From NCBI RefSeq assembly GCF_001677475.2, contig NZ_CP015229.1: a stretch of 64,000 nucleotides of DNA; one strand, given 5' to 3'. A program made the position numbers and the translations under genes. Source of the DNA: Escherichia coli (GTDB lineage: Bacteria > Pseudomonadota > Gammaproteobacteria > Enterobacterales > Enterobacteriaceae). Below the pieces are notes generated by a model. It searched no databases and had not been told where the DNA came from. It worked only from the letters and a program-made list of their open reading frames with translations. Positions 3,642 to 44,250 of this stretch are shown here, one piece after another. The stretch's first letter is position 1. Every line of letters begins with the position of its first letter.

Positions 3642-4901
3642 ATGACACGGGCCGTGAAACCGCGCAGGTTTGCAATCAGGCCCATCATCTACGCCAGCGT
3701 TCTGAGCGCTGGCGTATTGTTGTGCGCCTTTTCCGCCCACGCGGATGAGCGTGACCAACTCAAATCCATTCAGGCTGACATCGCCGCGAAAGAGCGCGCG
3801 GTACGCCAAAAGCAACAACAACGCGCAAGCCTGCTCGCACAATTGAAAAAGCAGGAAGAAGCGATCTCTGAAGCCACCCGTAAACTGCGCGAAACGCAAA
3901 ACACGCTCAATCAACTGAATAAACAGATTGATGAGATGAACGCGTCGATTGCCAAACTGGAGCAGCAAAAAGCCGCCCAGGAGCGCAGCCTCGCCGCACA
4001 ACTGGATGCCGCATTCCGTCAGGGCGAGCATACCGGTATTCAGCTAATTCTCAGCGGTGAAGAAAGCCAGCGTGGTCAGCGTTTACAGGCTTATTTCGGC
4101 TATCTCAACCAGGCGCGACAAGAAACCATTGCTCAGTTGAAACAAACGCGTGAAGAAGTCGCTATGCAGCGTGCCGAACTGGAAGAGAAACAGAGCGAGC
4201 AACAAACGCTTTTATATGAGCAGCGCGCCCAACAGGCGAAGCTGACCCAGGCGTTGAGCGAGCGTAAAAAGACGCTGGCAGGGCTGGAGTCTTCCATCCA
4301 GCAAGGTCAGCAACAGTTGAGCGAGCTGCGCGCCAACGAATCCCGTCTGCGTAACAGCATTGCCCGTGCGGAAGCCGCGGCGAAAGCGCGTGCTGAACGT
4401 GAAGCGCGCGAAGCCCAGGCGGTTCGCGACCGCCAGAAAGAAGCGACGCGCAAAGGCACCACCTACAAACCGACCGAAAGCGAAAAATCGCTGATGTCCC
4501 GAACTGGTGGCCTGGGTGCGCCGCGTGGTCAGGCATTCTGGCCGGTTCGCGGGCCGACGTTGCATCGCTATGGCGAGCAGCTACAGGGTGAATTACGCTG
4601 GAAAGGGATGGTTATCGGTGCCTCTGAAGGTACTGAAGTTAAAGCGATTGCCGACGGTCGGGTGATTCTGGCTGACTGGCTGCAAGGCTACGGTCTGGTG
4701 GTGGTGGTTGAGCATGGTAAAGGCGACATGAGTCTTTACGGCTATAATCAGAGCGCACTGGTGAGCGTTGGTTCGCAGGTTCGCGCGGGCCAGCCAATTG
4801 CACTGGTGGGCAGCAGTGGCGGTCAGGGTCGGCCTTCACTCTATTTCGAAATTCGCCGCCAGGGTCAGGCGGTCAATCCACAGCCGTGGTTGGGAAGATA
4901 A
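3642..4901 (+). CDS. envC: murein hydrolase activator EnvC (coiled-coil plus LytM/M23 domain)
   Basis: Signal peptide MTRAVKPRRFAIRPIIYASVLSAGVLLCAFSAHA, Q/E-rich coiled coil, C-terminal M23-like domain; 419 aa from ATG 3642. Confidence 0.92.
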   Translation: MTRAVKPRRFAIRPIIYASVLSAGVLLCAFSAHADERDQLKSIQADIAAKERAVRQKQQQRASLLAQLKKQEEAISEATRKLRETQNTLNQLNKQIDEMNASIAKLEQQKAAQERSLAAQLDAAFRQGEHTGIQLILSGEESQRGQRLQAYFGYLNQARQETIAQLKQTREEVAMQRAELEEKQSEQQTLLYEQRAQQAKLTQALSERKKTLAGLESSIQQGQQQLSELRANESRLRNSIARAEAAAKARAEREAREAQAVRDRQKEATRKGTTYKPTESEKSLMSRTGGLGAPRGQAFWPVRGPTLHRYGEQLQGELRWKGMVIGASEGTEVKAIADGRVILADWLQGYGLVVVVEHGKGDMSLYGYNQSALVSVGSQVRAGQPIALVGSSGGQGRPSLYFEIRRQGQAVNPQPWLGR

Positions 4902-7090: not shown

Positions 7091-7116
7091 GCAAAAGGGC
7101 TGGAATACCAGCCCTT
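7091..7116 (-). terminator. hairpin terminator downstream of tdh (kbl-tdh operon)
   Basis: Perfect 9 bp stem AAGGGCTGG/CCAGCCCTT with 4 nt loop, followed on the minus strand by TTTTGCC, just after the tdh stop. Confidence 0.55.
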
Positions 7117-40092: not shown

Positions 40093-40782
40093 ATGAACCC
40101 AACACGTTATGCACGTATCTGCGAAATGCTCGCCAGGCGGCAGCCTGATCTGACCGTCTGCATGGAGCAGGTCCACAAACCTCATAACGTTTCTGCGATT
40201 ATTCGTACCGCAGATGCCGTTGGCGTACATGAAGTTCATGCCGTCTGGCCTGGCAGCCGGATGCGCACCATGGCTTCGGCAGCTGCGGGTAGTAACAGCT
40301 GGGTACAGGTGAAAACGCACCGCACCATTGGCGATGCCGTCGCTCATCTGAAAGGCCAGGGCATGCAGATTCTGGCAACCCATCTTTCTGATAACGCTGT
40401 CGATTTCCGCGAAATTGATTACACTCGCCCGACCTGTATTTTGATGGGACAGGAGAAAACAGGCATCACGCAGGAAGCGTTGGCCCTGGCGGATCGGGAC
40501 ATCATCATTCCGATGATTGGCATGGTGCAATCGCTGAATGTTTCCGTTGCCTCAGCCCTCATTCTTTACGAAGCCCAGCGCCAGCGGCAAAATGCGGGCA
40601 TGTACCTGCGTGAAAACAGCATGTTGCCGGAAGCAGAGCAACAACGCCTGTTGTTTGAAGGCGGCTATCCGGTGCTGGCGAAAGTCGCAAAACGCAAAGG
40701 CCTGCCTTATCCCCACGTAAATCAGCAAGGCGAGATCGAAGCTGATGCCGACTGGTGGGCTACTATGCAGGCTGCAGGGTAA
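40093..40782 (+). CDS. trmH: tRNA (guanosine18-2'-O)-methyltransferase
   Basis: 229 aa SpoU-family methyltransferase; position after spoT. Confidence 0.92.
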   Translation: MNPTRYARICEMLARRQPDLTVCMEQVHKPHNVSAIIRTADAVGVHEVHAVWPGSRMRTMASAAAGSNSWVQVKTHRTIGDAVAHLKGQGMQILATHLSDNAVDFREIDYTRPTCILMGQEKTGITQEALALADRDIIIPMIGMVQSLNVSVASALILYEAQRQRQNAGMYLRENSMLPEAEQQRLLFEGGYPVLAKVAKRKGLPYPHVNQQGEIEADADWWATMQAAG

Positions 40783-40787
40783 GTGCC

Positions 40788-42869
40788 ATGAAAGGTCGCC
40801 TGTTAGATGCTGTCCCACTCAGTTCCCTAACGGGCGTTGGCGCAGCACTTAGTAACAAACTGGCGAAAATCAACCTGCATACCGTGCAGGATCTACTGTT
40901 ACACCTTCCCCTGCGCTACGAAGATCGCACCCATCTCTACCCCATCGGAGAACTACTGCCGGGCGTTTATGCCACGGTGGAAGGCGAAGTGCTGAACTGC
41001 AATATCTCCTTCGGCGGTCGGCGGATGATGACCTGCCAGATCAGCGACGGTTCCGGCATTCTCACCATGCGCTTTTTCAACTTCAACGCGGCAATGAAAA
41101 ATAGCCTGGCGACGGGCCGCCGTGTACTGGCCTATGGTGAAGCAAAGCGCGGTAAATATGGTGCGGAGATGATCCACCCGGAATACCGCGTGCAAGGCGA
41201 TCTCAGCACGCCAGAGTTACAGGAAACGCTCACGCCGGTTTACCCAACTACGGAAGGCGTAAAGCAGGCCACGCTGCGTAAATTAACCGACCAGGCGCTG
41301 GATCTGCTCGACACCTGCGCCATTGAAGAACTCCTGCCGCCGGAACTGTCACAAGGAATGATGACGCTGCCGGAAGCGTTGCGCACTTTGCACCGCCCGC
41401 CGCCGACGCTACAGCTTAGCGATCTGGAAACCGGCCAGCATCCGGCACAACGCCGTCTGATTCTGGAAGAACTGCTGGCGCACAACCTCAGCATGTTAGC
41501 CTTACGTGCCGGAGCACAGCGTTTTCATGCCCAGCCACTGAGCGCCAATGACGCGCTGAAAAATAAACTCCTCGCAGCCTTACCGTTCAAGCCAACGGGC
41601 GCACAGGCACGCGTAGTGGCGGAGATCGAGCGCGATATGGCGCTGGATGTGCCGATGATGCGCCTGGTACAGGGCGATGTAGGTTCCGGTAAAACGCTGG
41701 TCGCCGCCCTCGCCGCGCTGCGTGCGATTGCCCACGGCAAACAGGTGGCATTAATGGCACCAACCGAATTACTCGCCGAGCAGCACGCCAATAACTTCCG
41801 CAACTGGTTTGAACCGCTCGGTATCGAAGTGGGCTGGCTCGCCGGTAAGCAGAAAGGTAAAGCGCGACTGTCTCAGCAGGAAGCCATTGCCAGCGGTCAG
41901 GTGCAGATGATTGTTGGTACGCACGCCATCTTCCAGGAACAGGTGCAGTTTAACGGCCTGGCGCTGGTGATTATCGACGAACAGCATCGCTTTGGCGTGC
42001 ATCAGCGTCTGGCATTGTGGGAGAAAGGCCAGCAGCAAGGCTTCCATCCGCATCAGCTGATCATGACCGCGACACCCATCCCACGCACGTTGGCAATGAC
42101 CGCCTATGCCGACCTTGATACCTCGGTGATAGATGAACTGCCGCCAGGCCGCACGCCAGTGACTACGGTCGCTATTCCTGATACCCGCCGTACCGACATT
42201 ATTGACCGCGTGCGCCATGCCTGCATCACCGAAAAGCGTCAGGCGTACTGGGTGTGCACACTCATTGAAGAGTCAGAGTTACTGGAAGCGCAGGCAGCTG
42301 AAGCTACCTGGGAAGAGTTGAAACTGGCGCTACCAGAGTTGAATGTTGGCCTGGTACACGGACGGATGAAACCAGCCGAGAAACAGGCGGTGATGGCGTC
42401 GTTTAAACAAGGTGAACTACACCTGCTGGTTGCCACTACCGTTATTGAAGTCGGCGTTGATGTGCCTAACGCCAGTCTGATGATTATCGAAAACCCGGAG
42501 CGTCTGGGTCTGGCGCAGTTACACCAGCTGCGCGGGCGTGTAGGTCGTGGCGCGGTGGCTTCTCACTGCGTGCTGCTCTACAAAACACCGCTCTCTAAAA
42601 CGGCGCAAATTCGCCTGCAAGTGCTGCGCGACAGCAACGACGGGTTTGTGATTGCACAAAAAGATCTGGAGATTCGCGGCCCTGGCGAATTGTTAGGCAC
42701 TCGTCAGACGGGTAATGCTGAATTTAAAGTGGCGGATTTACTGCGCGATCAGGCGATGATCCCGGAAGTTCAGCGCCTGGCGCGACATATTCACGAACGT
42801 TACCCACAACAAGCAAAAGCCCTGATAGAACGCTGGATGCCAGAAACAGAACGTTACTCCAACGCGTAA
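40788..42869 (+). CDS. recG: ATP-dependent DNA helicase RecG
   Basis: True start at MKGRLLDAVPLSSLTGVGAALSNKLAKI; 693 aa; Walker A GDVGSGKT, DEQH box. Confidence 0.95.
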   Translation: MKGRLLDAVPLSSLTGVGAALSNKLAKINLHTVQDLLLHLPLRYEDRTHLYPIGELLPGVYATVEGEVLNCNISFGGRRMMTCQISDGSGILTMRFFNFNAAMKNSLATGRRVLAYGEAKRGKYGAEMIHPEYRVQGDLSTPELQETLTPVYPTTEGVKQATLRKLTDQALDLLDTCAIEELLPPELSQGMMTLPEALRTLHRPPPTLQLSDLETGQHPAQRRLILEELLAHNLSMLALRAGAQRFHAQPLSANDALKNKLLAALPFKPTGAQARVVAEIERDMALDVPMMRLVQGDVGSGKTLVAALAALRAIAHGKQVALMAPTELLAEQHANNFRNWFEPLGIEVGWLAGKQKGKARLSQQEAIASGQVQMIVGTHAIFQEQVQFNGLALVIIDEQHRFGVHQRLALWEKGQQQGFHPHQLIMTATPIPRTLAMTAYADLDTSVIDELPPGRTPVTTVAIPDTRRTDIIDRVRHACITEKRQAYWVCTLIEESELLEAQAAEATWEELKLALPELNVGLVHGRMKPAEKQAVMASFKQGELHLLVATTVIEVGVDVPNASLMIIENPERLGLAQLHQLRGRVGRGAVASHCVLLYKTPLSKTAQIRLQVLRDSNDGFVIAQKDLEIRGPGELLGTRQTGNAEFKVADLLRDQAMIPEVQRLARHIHERYPQQAKALIERWMPETERYSNA

Positions 42870-42969
42870 AAGACGGCGGTGAGAAGACCGCCGCTTCAGG
42901 TTGTTCTACCTTCCTGCCGGATGTGCTTCGTCCTACAAAAACTTATAAATTCAATAAATTGTGAATCAA

Positions 42970-43003
42970 TACGTAGGCTTGATAAGCGAAGCGTATCAGG
43001 CAT
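42970..43003. repeat. REP (repetitive extragenic palindromic) element
   Basis: Minus strand reads GCCTGATACGCTTCGCTTATCAAGCCTAC, matching the REP pattern GCC(T/G)GAT.CG...CTTATC.GGCCTAC, between convergent recG and gltS. Confidence 0.6.
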
Positions 43004-43044
43004 TTGTCTTTGTTGCGGCGGCACTTCTACCGCCGCTTCATCGG

Positions 43045-44250
43045 TTAACCCGCAAAAATCGGCAACATCAAATACAACTTAATTACCAGCGCGTTAACGA
43101 TATCGATAAAGAACGCACCGACCATCGGCACTACCAGGAAGGCCATGTGCGACGGGCCAAAACGTTCAGTGATCGCCTGCATGTTGGCGATTGCCGTTGG
43201 CGTTGCACCGAGGCCAAAACCACAGTGACCCGCAGCAAGCACTGCCGCATCGTAGTTTTTGCCCATCATGCGCCAGGTAACGAAGATGGCATACAACGCC
43301 ATGAAGATGGTCTGTACCACCAGAATCGCCAGCATCGGCAGCGCCAGCGAAGCCAGCTCCCACAGTTTCAGCCCCATCAGCGCCATCGCCAGGAACAACG
43401 ACAGGCTTACGTTACCCAGCACGGATACCGCACGCTCAAAGACGCGGTAAAAGCCCATCATTGACAGACCGTTGCTCAGAATCACGCCAACAAACAGTAC
43501 ACAGACGAAGGTCGGCAGTTCAAAAGCAGTGCCAGCCAAAAGTTGCGCAACAATTTTCCCCACCGTCAGGCAGATAGCAATCAGCGCGATAGTTTCAATC
43601 AGCACCAACGAGGTGATCATGCGGCCCACATCCGGCTTTTCGAACGCCGTCGGGACTTCCTGGTCATCCGGAATACCGTTCGGCGTGGTGGAGTGTTTCA
43701 CCAGATAGCGCGCCACCGGACCGCCAATCAAGCCGCCCAGCACCAAACCGAACGTTGCACAGGCCATCGCCACTTCCGTCGCATTGGTGAAGCCATAACG
43801 TTCAATGAACAATTTACTCCATGCAGCTCCCGTACCGTGACCGCCGGAAAGCGTAATAGAACCGGCCAGCAACCCCATCAGCGGATCAAGCCCTAACAGG
43901 CTAGCCATACCAATGCCAATGGCATTTTGCATCACCAACAGACCAACAACCACAATCAGGAAGATGCCAACCACACGCCCACCGGCACGCAAACTGGCAA
44001 TGTTGGCGTTCAGGCCAATGGTGGCGAAGAAAGCCAGCATTAACGGATCGCGTAGGGACATATCAAAGTTGACTTCCCAGCCCATGCTTTTTTTCAGTAC
44101 CAGTAGCGCCAGCGCCACCAACAAACCACCCGCAACAGGTTCCGGTATGGTGTATTTCTTCAAAAAGGAGACGGAATGGACCAACTTACGCCCGAGCAGC
44201 AACGTCAGCGTTGCGGCAACAAGCGTTGCTAAAGTATCGAGATGAAACAT
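43045..44250 (-). CDS. gltS: sodium/glutamate symporter
   Basis: 401 aa polytopic membrane protein; MFHLDTLATLVAATLTLLLGRKLV. Confidence 0.92.
   Translation of the reverse strand: MFHLDTLATLVAATLTLLLGRKLVHSVSFLKKYTIPEPVAGGLLVALALLVLKKSMGWEVNFDMSLRDPLMLAFFATIGLNANIASLRAGGRVVGIFLIVVVGLLVMQNAIGIGMASLLGLDPLMGLLAGSITLSGGHGTGAAWSKLFIERYGFTNATEVAMACATFGLVLGGLIGGPVARYLVKHSTTPNGIPDDQEVPTAFEKPDVGRMITSLVLIETIALIAICLTVGKIVAQLLAGTAFELPTFVCVLFVGVILSNGLSMMGFYRVFERAVSVLGNVSLSLFLAMALMGLKLWELASLALPMLAILVVQTIFMALYAIFVTWRMMGKNYDAAVLAAGHCGFGLGATPTAIANMQAITERFGPSHMAFLVVPMVGAFFIDIVNALVIKLYLMLPIFAG

Follow-up and report, generated by a model that had tools for sequence, protein, structure and literature searches.

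REPs and BIMEs between convergent genes are textbook features of Escherichia coli. BIME-1 (RIB/RIP) is defined by a y and a z1 REP in inverse orientation, joined by a long L linker, often with an IHF site, and occurs in single copy (PMC3333891; PMC2817692); the GTAG tetranucleotide is a conserved REP feature (PMC3333891). The mechanism by which BIMEs spread has been called unknown, and transposition of the IS200/IS605 Y1 type does not generate direct repeats at its flanks (PMC3333891); according to PMC3184786, REPs "do not display MITE signatures". Concerning function, REPs in 3' UTRs have been described as terminators and stabilisers, with a model REP acting both as a partly Rho-dependent terminator and as an mRNA stabiliser, and about 30% of convergent gene pairs contain a REP (bioRxiv 10.64898/2026.03.23.713779). 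In the account of one review, the Yersinia elements YPAL/RU-2 duplicate 3-26 bp of target sequence on insertion, at sites that include or border regions of dyad symmetry (PMC2229807).

The element between recG and gltS is of this known kind. The window analysed here, a stretch of 64 kb of E. coli DNA, is 96-97% identical to K-12 over 40 kb, and the names recG and gltS were taken from the RefSeq annotation of matching E. coli genomes. In the ORF tool listing recG extends from 40755 to 42869 on the + strand (the annotated K-12 gene has 2082 nt, which puts the equivalent start at about 40788), and its stop codon TAA lies at 42867-42869 according to both the ORF list and the RefSeq annotation of orthologues. 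The sodium/glutamate symporter gene gltS occupies 43045-44250 on the - strand with its stop codon at 43045-43047, and its product shares 100% identity with GltS from representatives of three Escherichia species. ORF ends and RefSeq names thus agree with the convergent 175 bp recG/gltS spacer (42870-43044) that an earlier note on this DNA had described. The RefSeq annotation of K-12 contains no repeat feature between recG and gltS; this is uninformative, because the same annotation is also bare at yaaX-yaaA, which we take to be the annotated site of REP1. Our preferred reading, to which we give a probability of roughly 0.8, is that the interior of the spacer is a decayed BIME-1 lying between two copies of an ancestral terminator hairpin once shared by recG and gltS, with the insertion history and a role at RNA 3' ends as parts of the same explanation.

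To identify the interior, an nhmmer profile was built solely from five paralogues at other E. coli loci (ccmH-narP, ybiA-rhlE, fliA-fliC, sbp-pfkA and pitA-uspB). In the window it gave a single match, at 42899-43012 (E=1.3e-19). The aligned paralogues form a unit consisting of a left external motif, a 35-nt Y REP, a linker with AAATTCAATAAATTG, a 30-nt GTAG-tagged Z REP and a right external motif; Y, L and Z of the spacer were in register with all five. The Z REP, GTAGGCTTGATAAGCGAAGCGTATCAGGCA (42973-43002, + strand), carries the GTAG tetranucleotide 5' of the palindrome foot at 42973-42976 and agrees at 27 of 30 positions with the Z consensus of the five paralogues. It was the sole match to this consensus in 64 kb, and 100 shuffles gave none. 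The earlier note had placed a REP-like sequence at 42970-43003 and had named a formal REP profile scan as the test; the Z REP lies inside that interval and the profile match covers it, so the REP call is borne out.

The remaining parts were more eroded. A truncated Y REP in iREP orientation, TGCCGGATGTG/CTTCGTCCTAC, was found at 42915-42936 (+ strand), where alignment with the paralogues leaves a 13-column gap; the unit has lost 13 of its 35 nt and with them independent folding. It is still recognisable at both ends (TGCCGGATG...CCTAC), and Z is intact. A scan for the full Y consensus with up to 3 mismatches had no match in the window, because these 13 internal nt are lost. The L linker (42937-42972, + strand, from alignment with the paralogues) is among the better-conserved parts of the element and contains AATTCAATAAATTG at 42948-42961, a putative IHF site that, read from the sequence, has one mismatch to the IHF consensus WATCAANNNNTTR. 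On the left lies a remnant of the A motif, GGTTGTTCTACCTTCC (42899-42914, + strand, delimited by the nhmmer alignment and the family termini), which has lost about 12 internal nt compared with the family and with E. whittamii; on the right, alignment with the family identified a B-motif remnant, TTTGTCTTTGTT (43003-43014, + strand), without its outer ~10 nt (CATCAGTCTC). There is one BIME-1 unit at the locus and no tandem array. By strict definition, with its broken Y REP and truncated A and B, this copy is a BIME-1 remnant, and interactions with IHF or RAYT may have been lost.

Despite this erosion (Y REP shortened by 13 nt, A and B truncated), the copy resembles described BIME-1 (RIB/RIP) elements in part order and orientation, L-linker sequence and GTAG-tagged Z REP; it is likewise present in single copy at convergent 3' ends and has dispersed paralogues in every E. 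coli genome. The spacer interior matched a median of 12 places per E. coli genome, and queries with full Y and Z REPs gave at least 40 matches per genome in most genomes. A likeness also exists to REPINs, inverted REP doublets mobilised by RAYT/TnpA-REP: here, too, two inverted REPs and a spacer form one long hairpin, and presence or absence is polymorphic between strains. This long hairpin folds with -26 to -27 kcal/mol (z about -3). However, the recG-gltS element and many other BIME-1 copies are flanked by long direct repeats, unlike the products of IS200/IS605-type Y1 transposition (PMC3333891). Taken by itself, the recG-gltS copy is an ordinary, decaying example of a common element.

On both sides the element is bordered by a GC-rich hairpin. 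Hairpin 1, CGGCGGT-GAGAAG-ACCGCCG (42874-42893, arms 42874-42880 and 42887-42893), has a perfect 7-bp stem; hairpin 3, GCGGCGG-CACTTCTA-CCGCCGC (43015-43036, arms 43015-43021 and 43030-43036), likewise has a perfect 7-bp stem and an 8-nt loop. The repeat finder detected an exact 12-nt direct repeat (100%, spacing 142), ACCGCCGCTTCA, at 42887-42898, where it comprises the 3' arm of hairpin 1 plus its tail, and at 43029-43040 (both + strand). The 5' arms of the two hairpins match as well. Judged from this common stem, tail and repeat, hairpins 1 and 3 are two copies of one ancestral hairpin, the left and the right copy of the recG/gltS terminator palindrome. The idea that hairpin 3 is an inverted copy of hairpin 1, by inversion of the loop, found no support, since the sequence in common is just the 5-mer AGAAG, and that in some lineages only. 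The stem of hairpin 3 is invariant across all Escherichia sequences seen.

RNA folding, which the earlier note had proposed as a check, gave low z-scores for all three structures. Hairpin 1 folds with -15.9 kcal/mol on the + strand (z -3.4) and -18.9 kcal/mol on the - strand, hairpin 3 with -18.7 kcal/mol on the - strand (z -5.3) and -17.1 kcal/mol on the + strand (z -3.6). The Z REP, which has an internal mismatch, reached -12.1 kcal/mol on the + strand (z -2.8) and -6.7 kcal/mol on the - strand (z -1.2); its hairpin is stable in recG-direction RNA only. The entire spacer folds as one nested long hairpin (z -5.0 on the + strand, -6.9 on the - strand), for which "nested palindromes", the wording of the earlier note, is accurate. 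In K-12 hairpin 1 is degraded (z -1.4 and -0.6). The two inverted repeats called in the note are real, and its coordinates are correct to within 1-2 nt. Its picture was nevertheless incomplete: the REP stands, the truncated second REP and the IHF-type linker had been missed, and the "further" hairpins are not independent but copies of one.

To compare relatives of the locus, GltS was scanned in one genome per species, giving 80 loci. In Salmonella (35 bp) and Citrobacter (39-44 bp) the spacer holds a single hairpin with the same GCGGCGG/CCGCCGC stem, and in Enterobacter, Cedecea and Leclercia it is 0-4 bp long. In the five Escherichia representatives, E. albertii and E. whittamii among them, the arrangement is invariably hairpin-BIME-hairpin (171-200 bp), and their orthologous BIME copies matched the profile with E-values between 1e-19 and 1e-34. 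Four other Escherichia species retain a complete Y REP, and E. whittamii a complete A motif. Since all five representatives carry the insertion, it is, as read from these alignments, old and precedes the divergence of the sampled Escherichia species, and the window copy has decayed since. The Y REP lost 13 nt in the window and 20 nt in K-12, and the Z REP 17 nt in one lineage.

Within E. coli three alleles of the spacer are common. The long allele of the window is carried by about 1865 genomes (about 34%). A 33-bp allele with a single hairpin, TAAAAAGCGGCGGTGAGAAGACCGCCGCTTCATCGGTTA, was found in 1633 of 5426 genomes (30%). In the third, present in about 1900 genomes (about 35%), the spacer is replaced by an unrelated 867-bp ORF, whose 288-aa product had no match in Pfam, NCBIfam or PADLOC. 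Separate deletions in different lineages, together with total loss in 30% of genomes, argue against strong selection on the BIME part. The three alleles constitute a natural experiment for effects of REP on the expression of recG and gltS.

The 33-bp allele corresponds to the long allele minus exactly the 142 bp between the direct repeats, and is composed of the 5' arm and loop of hairpin 1, one repeat copy and the right flank; its loop is identical to that of hairpin 1. Short alleles occurred on at least three flank haplotypes, which were also found with the long allele, and always kept the left loop and the right-hand tail, as expected from recombination within the longer (3') repeat segment. 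Slippage of the Tn10/Tn5 type leads to precise excision of palindromic transposons between their target duplications. At recG-gltS, too, a palindromic insert lies between direct repeats and the excised allele keeps exactly one repeat copy; the difference is that the repeats here are hairpins themselves. We regard secondary excision as the likely origin of the short allele, which is favoured by parsimony across Escherichia.

The history that we propose would begin with one GCGGCGG/CCGCCGC hairpin between the stop codons of recG and gltS, serving as a shared terminator. In an Escherichia ancestor BIME-1 would have entered at this palindrome, leaving it on both sides in direct orientation with different loops. 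Different parts would later have been deleted in different lineages (the Y REP in the window and K-12, the Z REP elsewhere), and in about 30% of E. coli the element would have been lost between the direct repeats together with one hairpin copy, restoring the single hairpin. So read, the locus would be a clean example of a repeat insertion that splits a shared bidirectional terminator into two hairpins.

The same arrangement was observed at other loci. At ccmH-narP and pitA-uspB a BIME-1 lies between two direct copies of a locus-specific, terminator-like hairpin (spacing 176 and 173-177, respectively), and its presence is polymorphic: ccmH-narP is filled in 1505 of 5425 E. coli genomes, pitA-uspB in 1940 of 5425. 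The empty alleles (minus 176 bp and minus 173 bp, respectively) equal the filled allele without BIME-1 and one hairpin copy, and the hairpin that survives has the exact sequence of one of the two found in the filled allele. Flanking direct repeats and a matching empty site, a MITE-like feature, are thus both present at recG-gltS, ccmH-narP and pitA-uspB.

These empty alleles bear on another history of the recG-gltS locus, in which E. coli has retained the ancestral empty site as the 33-bp allele, the long allele having been derived from it by insertion. The short allele does resemble the outgroup state, one short-allele genome has a recG flank that differs by 5-6% (94-95% identity) from other E. 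coli haplotypes, and an insertion would directly explain why one hairpin copy equals that of the empty site. However, five non-identical Escherichia representatives, E. albertii among them, share the same insertion with the same junctions, so the empty allele would have had to persist through several speciations. The short alleles stand on the at least three flank haplotypes that the long allele also has, and wherever empty alleles were found (three loci), their hairpin is the expected product of recombination within the longer direct-repeat segment. We therefore consider a retained empty site unlikely, although it is the strongest of the competing explanations, and continue with insertion followed by excision.

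To survey the duplication more widely, metagenomes were scanned with a BIME-1 pattern, which yielded 120 stretches, 105 of them usable, from 33 distinct loci. For each locus the left flank was aligned to the right flank and the score compared with a cross-locus null (99th percentile 22, maximum 25). A duplicated locus-specific hairpin was detected at a minimum of 9 of the 33 loci, with scores of 23-51 in the top 1% of the null and eight of them above its maximum of 25. At all nine, 28-29 nt separate the end of the left copy from the Y REP, and the distance from the Z REP to the start of the right copy is 22-25 nt at eight loci and 3 nt at the ninth (L116). At these eight loci the hairpin copies lie directly outside the element termini (C)AGATTG...CAGTCTC. 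The duplicated palindromes measure 19-27 nt (19-36 nt counting L116). Stable hairpins are also enriched at the element ends; at the right end 58% had -8 kcal/mol or less, compared with 21% at a distance (p=0.005). Further loci with duplicated flanks were visible by eye among the 33.

Hairpin copies within a locus differ mainly in their loops, and at one locus a compensatory change from C-G to T-A separates the copies. At ccmH-narP, a young insertion, 4 of 7 loop positions differ, compared with 0 of 18 positions in stem and tail. Neutral drift is an unlikely source of the loop differences at recG-gltS, where the copies differ at about 7 of 8 loop positions and at most 2 of 8 have changed since the Escherichia radiation. 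Fold-back synthesis at a break in the loop was rejected as the source of the two hairpins: at pitA-uspB the left copy, which lacks a loop, still has the original G of the T.G pair and is not a perfect complement.

The duplication pattern itself looks real. In a broader interpretation BIME-1 would be a MITE-like element that targets palindromic terminators. Insertion at the foot of a GC-rich hairpin would duplicate the whole palindrome, one copy receiving a rewritten or deleted loop, and the element would be lost when precise excision between these copies leaves a single terminator again. The recG-gltS locus would then represent an old, decayed filled state with the excised state in the E. coli population, and ccmH-narP and pitA-uspB would be young filled/empty pairs. 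As a joint claim, namely that the duplication reflects the insertion mechanism and that the pattern is not yet in the literature, this is tentative, and we are inclined to doubt that both hold together. IS200/IS605-type Y1 transposition does not yield such long duplications. If the interpretation is true, they would suggest either a template switch during replication or staggered cuts at the foot of an extruded hairpin or cruciform. A close parallel for the duplicated palindromes of BIME-1 loci is YPAL/RU-2, as far as the review describes these elements, which belong to a different sequence family and a different genus from E. coli BIME-1. The hairpin duplication may be a hint at how BIME-1 repeats insert and are lost. 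Its recurrence, together with the matching empty sites, offers a testable footprint for insertion and excision of BIME-1/REPINs, and, if undescribed for E. coli BIME-1, a concrete sequence footprint of the REP/BIME insertion mechanism.

Concerning function, the earlier note had suggested that the spacer structures terminate transcription or stabilise mRNA, which we find plausible. In the short allele, the outgroup spacers and the empty site of ccmH-narP, an A-tract, a GC hairpin and a T-tract common to two convergent genes form a unit like the known bidirectional intrinsic terminators; on the gltS strand, the short-allele hairpin combines a stem of 11 bp with UUUUUA directly after it, the canonical features of an intrinsic terminator. 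The long allele differs. There the A-tract stays with the left hairpin copy and the T-rich tail with the right copy, so that the nearest hairpin of each gene is left without its U-tract and the canonical unit lies beyond the BIME. None of the spacer hairpins has a strong U-tract when read on the strand of the gene nearest to it. Hairpin 1 has, on the - strand, the tail UCUUUUA (5 U of 8), derived from the A-run of TAAAAGA at the recG stop, and is a candidate intrinsic terminator for transcripts in gltS direction. Hairpin 3 has no U-tract on this strand (tail AACAAAGACAAA / AACAAAGA) and a weak one, UUCAUCGGUU, on the + strand, where both tails are weak. A terminator consensus scan made no call in the spacer; the - strand form of hairpin 1, a borderline case, probably escaped it because its stem is extended by a G-T pair, which displaces the tail window. 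The strand asymmetry of wobble pairs was tried as a means of assigning hairpins to genes and gave a mixed result, as K-12 hairpin 1 shows A x C on the + strand (G.U on the - strand) and A16 and E. whittamii the opposite signal.

Published K-12 data were also consulted. For recG and gltS the Term-seq tables contain Rho-termination regions, scored in 800-nt windows, but no curated 3' end (PMC7815308). One such region peaks at 3827414 on the + strand (PMC7815308 Supplementary file 2), which corresponds to the 3' foot of the Z REP in the K-12 orthologue. The other, with its peak at 3826980 on the - strand (PMC7815308 Supplementary file 2), lies antisense inside recG, which fits with the degraded hairpin 1 of K-12.

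From tails and folds we infer that transcription from either gene continues into the BIME and is stopped by Rho or at the distal hairpin, the structures acting at the RNA level at the 3' end of each convergent transcript. RNA in gltS direction would meet hairpin 3 without a U-tract, cross the BIME and end at hairpin 1 with UCUUUUA, or continue antisense into recG until Rho acts. RNA in recG direction would pass hairpin 1 with its weak U-tract and end either Rho-dependently near the Z REP or at hairpin 3. The hairpins would then block 3'-exonucleases. With the canonical hairpin and U-tract on the far side of the BIME, overlapping antisense 3' UTRs are predicted.

At the level of DNA, the L linker may bind IHF, by analogy with other BIME-1 copies. 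This could also be the main role of the element, as an IHF and/or gyrase site and topological buffer between the convergent units, with the RNA structures being incidental. BIME-1 L linkers do bind IHF, REPs interact with gyrase and Pol I (PMC3333891, PMC2817692), and the linker is among the parts that are better conserved here. However, the IHF-like site carries a mismatch to WATCAANNNNTTR, the REPs are decaying, and 30% of genomes lack the element and another 35% have a gene in its place, so that we consider a mainly DNA-level role improbable and keep to a role at RNA 3' ends.

Alternatively, the spacer could contain three independent elements, a solitary REP and two unrelated, gene-specific intrinsic terminators. 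Each hairpin does lie 4-8 nt from a stop codon, and hairpins beside BIME-1 ends are common at other loci. Nevertheless, this is highly unlikely: the L linker and the remnants of the Y REP and of A and B accompany the REP in register, the two hairpins share stem, tail and an exact 12-nt repeat, and both the outgroups and the short allele have a single hairpin.

Slightly less credible still is a small RNA encoded by the spacer itself, resembling ES036/CssrF or naRNA. Rfam models of both families reached some score, ES036/CssrF with 27.3 bits at 42939-42980 and naRNA4 with 24.9 bits at 42976-43037 on the - strand, but these remain below the gathering scores of 37.6 and 59.5, respectively, and no Rfam family passed the gathering threshold in the spacer. 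The ES036 consensus corresponds to the L linker and the start of Z, and Rfam has no REP family as such; as the ES036 and naRNA4 families are built on BIME/REP sequence, their matches merely restate the identity of the repeat. A sigma-70-like promoter was not found in 42500-43400 either.

That GC-rich palindromes arose by chance in a short spacer is practically negligible as an explanation, small as the motifs are, given an interior repeated genome-wide (median 12), the profile match of E=1.3e-19, the unique match to the Z consensus, the folding z-scores and an excess of perfect GC-rich hairpins. With stems of at least 7 bp and loops of 3-8 nt, six of these hairpins were counted in the 64-kb window, where a first-order Markov model predicts 1.5, and two of the six lie inside the 175-bp spacer.

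In many loci, the BIME-1 was bracketed, immediately beyond the element termini, by two direct copies of a palindrome (19-27 nt) that resembles a terminator and is specific to the locus. Such pairs were observed at ccmH-narP (L007:322-346 and 498-522) and pitA-uspB (L011:323-345 and 496-522), and among the loci of the metagenome scan at L095, L105, L109, L110, L113, L116, L127, and L136, as well as at L100 and L131. The two copies flanking an element differed chiefly in the loop. The palindrome pairs look like a long target duplication.

At both ccmH-narP and pitA-uspB, the BIME-1 was polymorphic for presence and absence in E. coli, with filled alleles in 28% (L007, compared to the empty L212) and 36% (L011, compared to the empty L213) of genomes, respectively. 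The empty alleles of these two loci each contained a single terminator, bidirectional and with the same sequence as one of the copies that flank the filled allele. For each of the three loci examined, recombination in the longer repeat segment would yield the empty allele that was observed.

In the right hairpin copy of ccmH-narP (within L007:482-522), the altered loop GATAAATCC contains the 7-mer ATAAATC, which is also present 20 nt upstream of this loop, inside an unusual B motif (GTCATAAATCTCA; consensus GTCATCAGTCTCA). The alteration of the right loop may be a templated change. In the right copies of the metagenome loci L110 and L113, substitutions in the 5' arm result in A x C mismatches on the + strand, corresponding to G.U pairs on the - strand. 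This pattern would be expected if each copy were specialised for the transcript of its adjacent convergent gene, although it was seen in only two cases and the evidence from recG-gltS is mixed. In L116, the direct repeat extends to 36 nt and comprises TTGCTTTTGGCGAAAAAA plus a hairpin; one copy lies about 64 nt to the left of the Y REP and the other adjoins the Z REP on its right. The repeat includes B-motif-like sequence on either side of the element, which suggests a more complex history of this locus, for example involving a partial earlier element.

Returning to recG-gltS, substitutions in the K-12 orthologue of hairpin 1 (L004:285-330) remove significant folding (z = -1.4 and -0.6). A Rho-termination region has been reported in K-12 at 3826980 on the - strand, antisense within recG (PMC7815308), and is consistent with read-through from gltS. 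Other perfect GC-rich hairpins (stems of 7 bp or more, loops of 3-8 nt) were found at only four sites in the window: 414-434, 3693-3713, 7097-7114, and 63362-63379.

Of 5426 E. coli genomes, about 1900 have an 867-bp ORF in place of the recG-gltS spacer (42870-43044 in the window). In E. coli DSM 103263 this ORF (L003:3255-4121, - strand in the locus) encodes 288 aa and is annotated as "hypothetical"; the gltS stop lies 2 nt from its start, there is a 16-nt overlap between its end and the recG stop, and searches against Pfam, NCBIfam, and PADLOC returned no matches. Over the last 570 nt of recG (42300-42869 in the window, compared to L001, L002, L003, and L005), the E. coli haplotypes were 3.5-6% apart, the most divergent being that of AVS0171, a short-allele genome. 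Divergence was lower in the adjacent 3' part of gltS (2-3%). The raised divergence at the recG 3' end may reflect recombination or old haplotypes near the polymorphic spacer.

In the outgroup Citrobacter amalonaticus AUH_CA_2023_1 (L017), the match to the RecG C-terminus was split or truncated, and walking to the stop codons gave a 260-bp "spacer" with recG coding sequence still inside, probably owing to a frameshift or an assembly error in the record. A second C. amalonaticus genome had a normal recG-gltS spacer of 44 bp.
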